IMG/VR virus record: IMGVR_UViG_3300035152_000011
Length of the DNA stretch: 64,000 nt
Direction: 5' to 3' (one strand)
Source of the DNA: a virus
The translations under genes and the position numbers were made by a program. Positions within the stretch are counted from its first letter, which is position 1, and the number at the start of each line of letters is the position of its first letter. Below are positions 54,262-56,605 of the stretch, one piece after another. Under the pieces are notes generated by a model. The model was not told where the DNA came from. It made no database searches and saw nothing but the letters and a program-made list of their open reading frames with translations.

Positions 54262-54786
54262 TCAGCGCCTTCCGCTCAAATCCGTTTTACGTGGACACAC
54301 CTCGCGCATCACGTACTGACCGCATGGCCACTGTTGGCCATAGAGGACTCTAAAGTCGCGCTTCTTGGGATCATACTCAAGCACGCGCCCAGGTTCGTGT
54401 GTGTGACAGCGTGCGCGTTTCTTGCGGACCTGTTTCTTCCAGAAGCCCTCGGATGCAGCAGTTCGTGAGTGATCGGATGCAAGCCGAGCGCCGCGTTCGC
54501 ATGCTAGTTCTAGCGCGCGCTGGTAGAGCTGCGTTCCGGCTCCGCATCGAGGGCTGACAACCTTTGCCATCTCGACGATGAGGGCACGACCACCATTAAG
54601 GCGTCGATCACGAACGTTGAATGTTCCCATGTAGTGGTGGTCCATGTGCGCTGAGATCGAGAAGGCAACATTGTAGTCACCCTTCTCATCGAAATACACA
54701 TCGCCCCCGGTGACGCGAAACGTGAACGGCTTGCATACGGCCGGTGGCGGCACGCGACGCGCAGCTTTGATTACCGACCGCGCCAT
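54262..54786 (-). CDS. GNAT-like paralog 1 of tandem array
   Basis: PRCGAGTQLYQRALELACERGARLASDHSRTAASEGFWKKQ...WPCGQYVMREVCPRKTDLSGRR; trimmed to internal ATG. Confidence 0.5.
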   Translation of the reverse strand: MARSVIKAARRVPPPAVCKPFTFRVTGGDVYFDEKGDYNVAFSISAHMDHHYMGTFNVRDRRLNGGRALIVEMAKVVSPRCGAGTQLYQRALELACERGARLASDHSRTAASEGFWKKQVRKKRARCHTHEPGRVLEYDPKKRDFRVLYGQQWPCGQYVMREVCPRKTDLSGRR

Positions 54787-54796
54787 CTCAATCCAC

Positions 54797-55246
54797 CTAT
54801 CGTTGTCTCCGGCCGCTGAGGTCGATCTTCCGTGGGCACGCTTCACGCATAGCGTACCGGCCGCATTCCCACTCACCGGACGGTCCCATCCCTTCCTCGG
54901 GTGGGCGCAGCCGCGTTGCAGGCTTGCCCGACACGCAGCTCGCGCGGCCTTTCTGGGCCTGCTTACGCCAGAAACTCTCAGACGCTTCGGTGCGCAAATG
55001 CCCCGAGGCGAGTCGAACGCGGTCTTCGCAGGCGAGCTGGAGCGCGCGTTCGTACATCTTGGTGCCGATACCGCAGCGACGGTGCTTCTTGACGATGACG
55101 TACTCGACGACGAGGAAGGGCTTGCCGTGGCGATCAGGCGCCAGTCCCATGAAGCCAGCCTCGTCGCCGTTCGTGAACGCCTTGATCTTGTAACCCTCTG
55201 TCGTCGGTTCGACCCGGAGCTTGACTGGACCGCAGCTTGGATTCAT
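54797..55246 (-). CDS. GNAT-like paralog 2
   Basis: HRRCGIGTKMYERALQLACEDRVRLASGHLRTEASESFWRKQ...REACPRKIDLSGRRQR. Confidence 0.5.
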   Translation of the reverse strand: MNPSCGPVKLRVEPTTEGYKIKAFTNGDEAGFMGLAPDRHGKPFLVVEYVIVKKHRRCGIGTKMYERALQLACEDRVRLASGHLRTEASESFWRKQAQKGRASCVSGKPATRLRPPEEGMGPSGEWECGRYAMREACPRKIDLSGRRQR

Positions 55247-55722
55247 CGTCGCCCCCGTCCGCTCAGGTCGATCTTGCGTGGACAGGCCTCGTGCATCGCG
55301 TATCTGTAGCAAGGCCAGTTCCCAACCGGTTTGAACATGAGGGGTGATTCACTGCTTAGCCGCGTTCCCGGTATTGCACGAGTCAGACAGTGCGCACGGC
55401 CTTTGCGCGTCTGCTTCCGCCAGAAGCCCTCCGATGCCTCAGTGCGCTTCGAGTCCGAAGCTAGAAGCGCGCGCTCAGCACAAGCGATGTTGTACAGATG
55501 CTCGTAGAGCCGGGTGCCAACACGACACCGTTTGATGTGCGCGCCCATTGCGCTCACGACAGCGAGCTTTTCGGGCCCGTAGTCGGTGATGAGCATGCCG
55601 GCGCCGCCCACCTTCTTGCCTTCCATGTAGGCGTCTACGTCGATCAGGACTGCATGGGGGCCGCTTTGGTAGCGGTCAGTCTTGAAGGAGATCGTCCCGC
55701 ACGTTATCGGTTTGGTCGCCAT
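55243..55722 (-). CDS. GNAT-like paralog 3
   Basis: KRCRVGTRLYEHLYNIACAERALLASDSKRTEASEGFWRKQ...HEACPRKIDLSGRGRR. Confidence 0.5.
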   Translation of the reverse strand: MATKPITCGTISFKTDRYQSGPHAVLIDVDAYMEGKKVGGAGMLITDYGPEKLAVVSAMGAHIKRCRVGTRLYEHLYNIACAERALLASDSKRTEASEGFWRKQTRKGRAHCLTRAIPGTRLSSESPLMFKPVGNWPCYRYAMHEACPRKIDLSGRGRR

Positions 55723-56129
55723 TCACTCAAGTCCATTTTGCGCGGACAGGCTTCGCGCATCACGTAGCGACGACACGGCCACTGCCCTTCGGGCAAGCGC
55801 CCTCCGACACCGCGGATGCACTTCGCGCGCTTCTTTTCGAGCTGTTTCTTCCAGAACCCCTCAGACATGTCAGACCGCAACTCGTCTGAGGCGATTCGGA
55901 GGCCCTGCTCGCAGGCGATCTTCATGGCGCGTTCGTAGAGCTTCGTCCCAATACCGCAGCGTCGGTACTCAGGCTTGACAGCGGCATCTGTGACAGCGAG
56001 TACGAAGTCGCCTTGCTCGTAGACCTCCGTGAGGTTCATTGCCCCAGCGGGATCTCCATTCATGTAGGCGCGGATGTACGTATCTTCGTCGTCCCCGAGT
56101 ACGCTGATCCTCAACTGGCCACACTTCAT
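55704..56129 (-). CDS. GNAT-like paralog 4
   Basis: YRRCGIGTKLYERAMKIACEQGLRIASDELRSDMSEGFWKKQ...REACPRKMDLSEWR. Confidence 0.5.
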   Translation of the reverse strand: MKCGQLRISVLGDDEDTYIRAYMNGDPAGAMNLTEVYEQGDFVLAVTDAAVKPEYRRCGIGTKLYERAMKIACEQGLRIASDELRSDMSEGFWKKQLEKKRAKCIRGVGGRLPEGQWPCRRYVMREACPRKMDLSEWRPNR

Positions 56130-56605
56130 CTGCGTCTCCGGCCGCTGAGATCCATCTTGCGAGGACAGGCCTCACGCATCACGTAGCGGTAGCAGGGCCA
56201 CTTCCCGACCGTCGTGAACCCGGTCGGGCTGTGGTGTAGTCGCCCCGCGGGAACGTCGCTCAGGTAACAGACTGCACGGCCCTTCTTGGCCTGCTTCGAC
56301 CAGAAGCCCTCTGACGCTTCGGTCCGCTGCGAATCCGATGCCAGTGGTAGTCTGTTCTCGCATGCTAGCGCGAGCGCCTTCTCGTAGAGCTTGGTACCTA
56401 TGCCACAGCGCCGATGCGCGATGACCTTCGCGTACTCGACTGCCATGATCGGCTCGCCATCGTCCAGCTCCGTCGTCGTCAAGTCCATCGCGCCGACGAA
56501 CTTGCCGTTCATGATGGCCGTCAGCTTGTAGTCGCGGCCGCCTTCGTACTCATCGTCGATGTAGTGCTGAATCGTGACCGTCCCGCATTTCGGGTACGTG
56601 GCCAC
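56126..56605 (-). CDS. GNAT-like paralog 5
   Basis: HRRCGIGTKLYEKALALACENRLPLASDSQRTEASEGFWSKQ...REACPRKMDLSGRRRR. Confidence 0.5.
   Translation of the reverse strand: MATYPKCGTVTIQHYIDDEYEGGRDYKLTAIMNGKFVGAMDLTTTELDDGEPIMAVEYAKVIAHRRCGIGTKLYEKALALACENRLPLASDSQRTEASEGFWSKQAKKGRAVCYLSDVPAGRLHHSPTGFTTVGKWPCYRYVMREACPRKMDLSGRRRR

Follow-up and report, generated by a model that had tools for sequence, protein, structure and literature searches.

Phages can keep several diverged paralogs of one protein-modifying enzyme: T4 encodes three diverged ADP-ribosyltransferases, Alt, ModA and ModB, which lie partly in tandem and have different host targets. Within the GNAT superfamily, RimI-like-clade domains are found in the 'polyvalent proteins' of phages and plasmids, typically beside ADP-ribosyltransferase (ART) domains but also as solo versions, and are predicted to act in phage-host conflict by modifying proteins (Iyer, Burroughs, Anand, de Souza and Aravind 2017, PMC5512222). 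Phage GNATs acting on host proteins are also exemplified by Rac of the phiKMV-like phages (PMC7552054) and the anti-CRISPR protein AcrVA5 (PMC9114340). Here, we analyzed a 64,000-nucleotide stretch of IMG/VR virus record IMGVR_UViG_3300035152_000011 (hereafter the window), in which five consecutive minus-strand genes at 54262–56605 (g5, g4, g3, g2 and g1, in the order of the array) and a distant sixth gene (g6) encode diverged paralogs with a GNAT fold. Their retention by one phage resembles that of Alt, ModA and ModB, although T4 uses another fold and another chemistry and has three copies rather than five plus one.

The polyvalent-protein GNATs are among the closest described counterparts. 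In the relative P0070, the family GNAT is followed by an ART-PolyVal domain (PF18760). P0046 contains, in this order, three family GNATs, a membrane segment and an SLT lytic transglycosylase domain, and a 2022-aa open reading frame (ORF) of contig L015 combines a more distant relative (GTKMYE...LISS...WKK) with a Kinase-PolyVal domain (PF18762). The best sequence matches of the family, weak as they are, are RimI-like (TIGR01575 of NCBIfam, E = 9e-4; structure 9mto, E = 6e-4), which agrees with the published placement. On the other hand, the window genes are solo and tandemly amplified, and their operon is one of replication and nucleotide metabolism rather than of virion or delivery functions. 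The likeness is drawn to the published description; identity with the polyvalent-protein GNAT family (e.g., BAR32501.1) is unproven, and tblastn searches with four protein queries (g5, the family consensus, P0047 and P0070) yielded no match among 50,697 deposited phage records, those of uvMED included. Rac and AcrVA5, as small phage GNAT-type proteins directed at host machinery or defence, represent the functional class that we propose for the family, but both are single genes, not arrays. Neither is among the top matches listed for the family, and no specific similarity to them in sequence or fold was found in those matches.

Six diverged paralogs with a variant GNAT fold

Gene calls that JGI made independently on the source contig agree with our own ORF reading of the array. 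The initial annotation, made from the letters of the window, had proposed five consecutive minus-strand paralogs of about 140–175 aa with a shared core, a conserved C-terminus and divergent N-terminal halves, together with a sixth copy elsewhere, and all of this was borne out. The array proteins are 141–174 aa long and 40–55% identical to one another; g6 is a true member of the family that shares 34–37% identity with the others, so that the six copies span 34–55%. Across the six, 28 columns are invariant, including RC, T, Y, AC, S, R, SE, FW, KQ, K, RA, C, C, Y, CP and L. In a rough neighbour-joining tree, the five tandem types form one clade with g6 outside.

The divergence is unevenly distributed along the proteins. 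Mean pairwise identity of the five tandem copies is 31% over the N-terminal 50 residues, 54% over the core, 33% over the β6-β7 hairpin and 79% over the last 18 structured residues. At the DNA level, even the best-conserved segments are just 63–79% identical and carry many silent differences, which rules out gene conversion as the source of the conserved C-terminus. Since the DNA identity is this low and an independent assembly (L001) contains an orthologous array in collinear order, the array represents neither recent copies nor gene-conversion tracts nor an assembly artefact. The five tandem genes are old duplicates, and it is their proteins that have been kept similar, consistent with the divergence asserted in the initial annotation.

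The genes are tightly packed, with overlaps of 4 nt (ATGA) between g5 and g4, 19 nt between g4 and g3 and 4 nt between g3 and g2, and a 10-nt gap between g2 and g1. The copies are probably co-translated. GGAG or GGGGG occurs within the Arg-tail codons of g5, g3 and g2 (56129–56143, 55246–55262 and 54797–54815), 7–12 nt before the next start codon, and with this placement the tail-coding sequence is likely to double as a ribosome-binding site within the array. The Arg tail is nevertheless unlikely to be a mere by-product of a Shine-Dalgarno sequence for the next gene, since it is kept in g1, which has no gene downstream, and in solo members of the family. Nor is it a phage-wide C-terminal signal: many genes of the phage (16 of 74) encode a basic C-terminus, whereas L-S-G-RRRR occurs in family members alone. 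A promoter and terminator scan of the array gave a result no better than that of shuffled sequences.

PF00583 of Pfam matches g4 with 41 bits and g2 with 23.9 bits (cut-off 20.7), always over positions ~25–95 of the 116 of the model; the other copies fall below the cut-off or give no match. The AlphaFold2 model of g5, built with a 47-sequence family alignment, has a GNAT fold with a pLDDT of 94.4 and a pTM of 0.88, the pLDDT decreasing to 77 over the last residues. The g1 model (pLDDT 89.9) has the same topology. In Foldseek searches, solely GNATs or GNAT-like domains were found among the PDB matches listed, with TM-scores not exceeding ~0.55, and nearly all named matches in BFVD were acetyltransferases. 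On these models, the assignment to the GNAT fold, a check suggested together with the initial annotation, is sound, and the proteins are predicted to be a deviant version of it.

Both models show a mixed α/β fold with the β4-α3-β5-α4 core, in which four N-terminal strands are followed by α3, β5, α4, β6 with a hairpin, and β7. The g5 and g1 models contain two helices in total, and the α1-α2 arm of canonical GNATs is absent. An extra β-hairpin is inserted between β6 and β7; the hairpin region is shortest in g4 and longest in g1, which also has the longest N-terminus of the array. Compared with canonical small GNATs (PF00583; e.g., RimI, Naa50/Naa60, AAC(3)-I), the family thus lacks α1 and α2 and has the extra hairpin, a Trp in place of the motif-B Tyr, a set of Cys residues and a basic tail, and the TM-scores to them are 0.55 or lower.

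In 172 domain instances, Thr71, Ser90, Trp102, Lys104, Gln105 and Arg110 (g5 numbering) are 100% invariant and Tyr74, Phe101 and Ala111 are 99% invariant, and all nine are intact in the six window copies. In the model, they sit on α3, β5, α4 and β6, which are the coenzyme A (CoA)-binding elements of solved GNATs. The R-R-x-G-x-G segment, identified as GNAT motif A in the initial annotation, indeed aligns with motif A of solved GNATs, and in g5 the segment RRCGIGTKLYE is presumed to form the CoA pyrophosphate loop. Among the 172 domains, motif A has R in 85%, G in 92% and G or A in 100%. The form Q/R-x-x-G-x-G/A in the β4-α3 loop is kept in g5, g4, g2, g1 and g6. In the alignment, g3 has an Arg in place of the first Gly (KRCRVG), and its L001 ortholog has the Gly.

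In a profile alignment, the invariant Trp102 lies opposite the Tyr of 'FYKK' in the RimI-type structure 9mto. This motif-B Tyr at the start of α4 is usually the general acid in GNATs. Asp91, which is 86% conserved, aligns opposite the general-base Glu of RimI, and in g2 a Gly follows the invariant Ser instead of this Asp (LASGH). Cys82, Cys113, Cys138 and Cys147 are conserved in 91–96%, Cys67 in 79% and Cys7 in 69% of the domains. Cys residues are lost pairwise in subclades, Cys113 together with Cys138, while Cys82 and Cys147 remain. The fold ends in C-P-x(2-4)-[DS]-L-[SA]-G, beyond which 83% of 145 solo members carry a short tail rich in Arg and Lys; the tail is altered in g4 (...DLSEWRPNR), and g6, which has an N-terminal insertion, ends without it (...CPVRSLAG). 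The family signature reads G-T-x-L-Y ... L-x-S-D ... F-W-x-K-Q-x-x-K-G-R-A-x-C ... C-P-x(2-4)-[DS]-L-[SA]-G-(R/K)n.

Copy number, selection and distribution of the family

At the syntenic locus, which adjoins a conserved convergent gene of 354 aa, the number of copies is five in the window, four in L001 and one in a third relative, so that the copy-number variation looked for among related phages (~145 kb) is present. The third relative is represented by four contigs (L002, L003, L006 and L007), two of them 147–150 kb long, with a single copy each. The L001 array is collinear with that of the window: its copies a, b, c and d are orthologous to g5 (89% identity), g4 (64%), g3 (80%) and g2 (72%), and g1 has no ortholog in L001. 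Since the single copy of the third relative is of the g5 type (70% identical to g5), which is the sole type in single-copy relatives, we take g5 to be the founder type.

The dN/dS values between the window genes and their L001 orthologs (Nei-Gojobori) are 0.05 for g5, 0.20 for g4, 0.09 for g3 and 0.18 for g2, and are somewhat higher over the N-terminal third (0.13–0.28); with dS around 1, near saturation, these values are rough. The four orthologous copies are under purifying selection, and there is no gene-wide diversifying signal.

Arrays have also arisen independently elsewhere. Two copies each occur on L004, L005 and L008, and three members (P0011, P0015 and P0016) lie on one 3.5-kb contig. 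A distant phage-like contig in an NCBI metagenome-assembled genome (MAG; GCA_041643055.1) has its own three-gene array (L020, 5531–6983, and L021) beside Endonuclease VII and transglutaminase-core genes. Two or three domain repeats are fused within single polypeptides in P0046–P0051, P0055, P0080 and P0157, and the signature is kept in all three repeats of P0046. A small basic Cys-containing module (W-x-x-KDER-x-Y-x-x-I-x-x-SC ... C-x-R-[IV]-AAATVN), which has no Pfam match, is fused to the N-termini of P0037 and P0047 and to the C-terminus of P0049.

A word-indexed search found 45 relatives, all metagenomic, 32 of which have no precomputed Pfam GNAT match; most of these first-pass homologs are unnamed at source or termed 'hypothetical protein'. 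An exhaustive hidden Markov model (HMM) search of 1.84 billion cluster representatives gave 1300 matches at E ≤ 1e-3, 762 at E ≤ 1e-10 and 128 at E ≤ 1e-30. Members were found solely in metagenomes and viral contigs, the IMG/VR members on viral contigs of 26–221 kb and others on phage-like contigs of up to 232 kb. The family is a large, undescribed, phage-borne subfamily of GNAT acyltransferases, a well-delimited variant within a known superfamily. A DNA search of deposited phages with the 5-kb region gave no match, nor did the family consensus against 72,556 plasmids. PHROGs, NCBIfam and PADLOC contain no matching family and gave weak generic acetyltransferase matches at most. The sole match among 185,579 species-representative genomes (L019, CAZDMB010000305.1, 351–659) is on a 2-kb contig of an uncultured Planctomycetales MAG, which is too weak a hint to identify the host. 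JGI labels P0018 as 'ferredoxin-thioredoxin reductase', but Pfam matches of the window copies give no support for this name.

Possible function of the array

α1 and α2 normally wall in the acceptor pocket of GNATs. In the family, the acyl-CoA-binding half, with motif A and the α4 region, appears to be retained and α1 and α2 to be lost, which would leave an open acceptor site suited to macromolecules. We propose that each copy binds acetyl-CoA or a different acyl-CoA and acylates a macromolecule of the host, which would be either a protein or a target associated with nucleic acid, and that the flexible C-terminal poly-Arg tail may help to recruit an acidic or nucleic-acid-bound substrate. The array would have arisen by old tandem duplications of a g5-like founder, with the copies kept by purifying selection. 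The copies differ mainly in the N-terminal sheet and the β6-β7 hairpin, elements that shape acceptor specificity in GNATs, and with such variation the set would modify several host targets, perhaps in early or middle infection, for host takeover or counter-defence. This reading, in which every copy is an acyl-CoA-dependent effector and the macromolecular targets have diversified, is the one we prefer, and we give it an even chance of being correct. The fusions to ART-PolyVal and SLT domains, and that of the distant relative to Kinase-PolyVal, lend some support to a conflict role.

Several observations weigh against this proposal. The usual general-acid Tyr is replaced by an invariant Trp, and some copies may be impaired, with an Arg for the first motif-A Gly in g3 and no Asp91 in g2. 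In GNATs, constraint is generally weakest in the N-terminal region, and divergence there need therefore not mean diversification of targets, and gene-wide dN/dS, at a dS of ~1, gives no sign of positive selection. The conserved set of Cys82, Cys113, Cys138 and Cys147 could point to a metal or redox role. The array shares its operon with nucleotide-metabolism and replication genes, not virion genes, and the delivery logic of polyvalent proteins is not obviously applicable. Acyl-CoA binding and transfer by family members are themselves predictions from sequence and models. The arms-race effector envisaged in the initial annotation is plausible, with the fusions in its favour, but the dN/dS values of 0.05–0.20 indicate purifying selection, with no measurable diversification.

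A bolder version of the proposal is an 'acylation battery', in which a minimal, open-sited GNAT was amplified accordion-fashion into six independently active enzymes, each acylating a different host defence or housekeeping macromolecule. The shared L-S-G and poly-Arg C-terminus would then serve in targeting, for example to ribosomes, nucleic acid or the nucleoid, and catalysis would be non-canonical, based on Ser or Cys without Tyr. We regard this version as rather unlikely; if true, ~760–1300 sequence clusters would make up a new and widespread class of effectors that phages use for takeover or counter-defence.

The translational coupling of the genes and the fused repeats of other members would also suit a hetero-oligomer, in which the co-translated paralogs form one GNAT complex, or pseudo-dimers or pseudo-trimers as in tandem-GNAT proteins, acting on a single target with some copies as non-catalytic scaffolds. 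However, close relatives get by with one copy, and the copy number varies freely (1, 2, 3, 4 or 5), unlike in a fixed complex. The nine invariant or near-invariant residues are intact in every window copy, as is the signature in every repeat of P0046, and we consider such a complex unlikely. Loss of catalysis altogether is the premise of another alternative, which holds the proteins to be acyl-CoA sensors or binders of the kind of PanZ/PanM or the ICL2 regulatory domain, or Cys-dependent metal or redox proteins that would bind host factors and inhibit them. The loss of the general-acid Tyr to Trp and the conservation of four Cys residues, with two more at 69–79%, speak for this view, and the regulatory domain of M. 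tuberculosis ICL2, which binds acetyl-CoA, is among the high-ranking Foldseek matches. A GNAT with a non-enzymatic role has a precedent in PanM (PMC3398536). On the other hand, the invariant Ser, the Asp91 at the RimI general-base position and the intact P-loop resemble an active site, and pairwise loss of Cys residues in subclades speaks against a single Cys4 metal site. Moreover, activity is possible in GNATs that lack the Tyr: PA3944, for example, uses a Ser nucleophile, so that loss of the Tyr is compatible with catalysis (PMC8072286). A non-catalytic role thus seems quite improbable to us.

The initial annotation had likened the copies to the GNAT toxins AtaT and TacT. As toxins of the AtaT/TacT/ItaT kind, they would acetylate aminoacyl-tRNA and stop host translation, with the poly-Arg tail binding tRNA. 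The GNAT fold, the similar size and a basic surface for nucleic acid are indeed shared, but the likeness does not extend further. AtaT and TacT are no nearer to the family than dozens of other GNATs, the catalytic Tyr (Tyr144 of AtaT) is replaced by Trp, and α1 and α2 are absent. No antitoxin (of the ribbon-helix-helix/DUF1778 type) or conserved partner gene was found at the examined loci, nor was there a match to a toxin family in PADLOC or NCBIfam, and the probability that we assign to this function is very low. In Mom, a basic unstructured segment was proposed to aid tRNA binding and a helix-turn-helix-like insertion is essential for activity (PMC13219725); the family models differ in having no helical insertion and in keeping motif A for CoA, and Mom is absent from the structure and sequence matches listed. 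Paralogous acetyltransferases with different specificities for small molecules, such as polyamines, antibiotics or nucleotide-like defence signals, have an equally poor chance in our estimate. The helices α1 and α2, which, judging from known GNAT structures, build the small-molecule acceptor pocket, are absent, none of the NCBIfam resistance or SpeG models scores close to its cut-off, and the fusions to ART-PolyVal and SLT, like the polyvalent kinase of the distant relative, fit macromolecular targets better.

Acylation of proteins or RNA by phages is barely explored, Rac and AcrVA5 being isolated examples, and the family is mostly missed by current annotation. If the copies are active on distinct host targets, as in the acyl-CoA-dependent reading that we prefer, new enzymes for host takeover or anti-defence could readily be drawn from the family, which would also be a natural system for the evolution of acceptor specificity on a stripped-down GNAT scaffold. 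If they are inactive or redundant, the family is no more than one further diverged subfamily of GNATs.

Genomic context

The array lies within a leftward operon with a ribonucleotide reductase (RNR), a UvrD-like helicase and ORFans. Since no neighbouring gene is conserved across distant loci and ten neighbouring or nearby genes gave no match in Pfam, the GNAT genes are a stand-alone module, not a two-gene system. A conserved partner such as an antitoxin, an immunity protein or a target was sought across the distant loci and not found, and neighbours are held in common just among the three closely related phages. In its gene content, the window resembles the replication region of a large phage: it encodes PolA, a primase-like protein, two helicases, an exonuclease and a Sak4-like annealing protein, together with a class II RNR and a TnpB transposase. 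This phage has no close cultured relative, its PolA being at most 30% identical to that of any deposited phage. Coordinates are collected in Table 1.

Table 1 Coordinates of the GNAT paralogs, segments of g5 and other genes of the window
Feature	Position	Strand	Description	Basis
g5	56126..56605	-	159 aa, GTG start; first gene of the array	ORF and JGI call
g4	55704..56129	-	141 aa; shortest copy	ORF and JGI call
g3	55243..55722	-	159 aa	ORF and JGI call
g2	54797..55246	-	149 aa, ATG start; maximal ORF to 55312	JGI call
g1	54262..54786	-	174 aa, ATG start; maximal ORF to 54876; last of the array	JGI call
g6	40725..41207	-	160 aa; distant sixth copy	Family HMM, E = 1e-38
g5, motif A and start of helix α3	56381..56413	-	Residues 65–75, RRCGIGTKLYE	Alignment with motif A of the solved GNAT structures 8osp and 9mto
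g5, C-terminal signature	56129..56197	-	Residues 137–159, WPCYRYVMREACPRKMDLSG with RRRR tail	Best-conserved paralog segment, 79%
Ordinary GNAT gene	59992..60402	-	136 aa; 3.4 kb upstream in the operon of the array	JGI/Pfam Acetyltransf_1
Class II RNR, large subunit	60781..63987	-	Runs off the window	
IS605/TnpB-type transposase	47917..49152	+		
PolA-type DNA polymerase	29415..33242	+	1275 aa	
Small gene adjacent to the next	40013..40276	+		
Small gene adjacent to the former	40276..40728	+		
tRNA-His (GTG)	42355..42429	-	~1.1 kb upstream of the g6 operon	

The ordinary GNAT gene upstream in the operon was considered as a seventh copy and rejected: it falls below the family HMM threshold, and motif A alone aligns (hhalign probability 35%). 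The two small plus-strand genes that end head-on against g6 have a common N-terminal peptide, MPSVFTL[S/E]GP, encoded by diverged DNA. In the PolA-type polymerase, polymerase families match just residues ~890–1275, and the N-terminal ~880 aa have no PHROG match. The RNR large subunit is 1170 aa on the source contig and 1582 aa in L001 (1–4067), where clear intein and LAGLIDADG matches are present; these lengths and matches indicate that intein content differs between the relatives. The TnpB-type transposase is 98% identical at the protein level to its L001 copy, with a dS of 0.06 compared with 0.4–1.3 for neighbouring orthologs, which suggests recent mobility of the element or its exchange between the window phage and the L001 phage.

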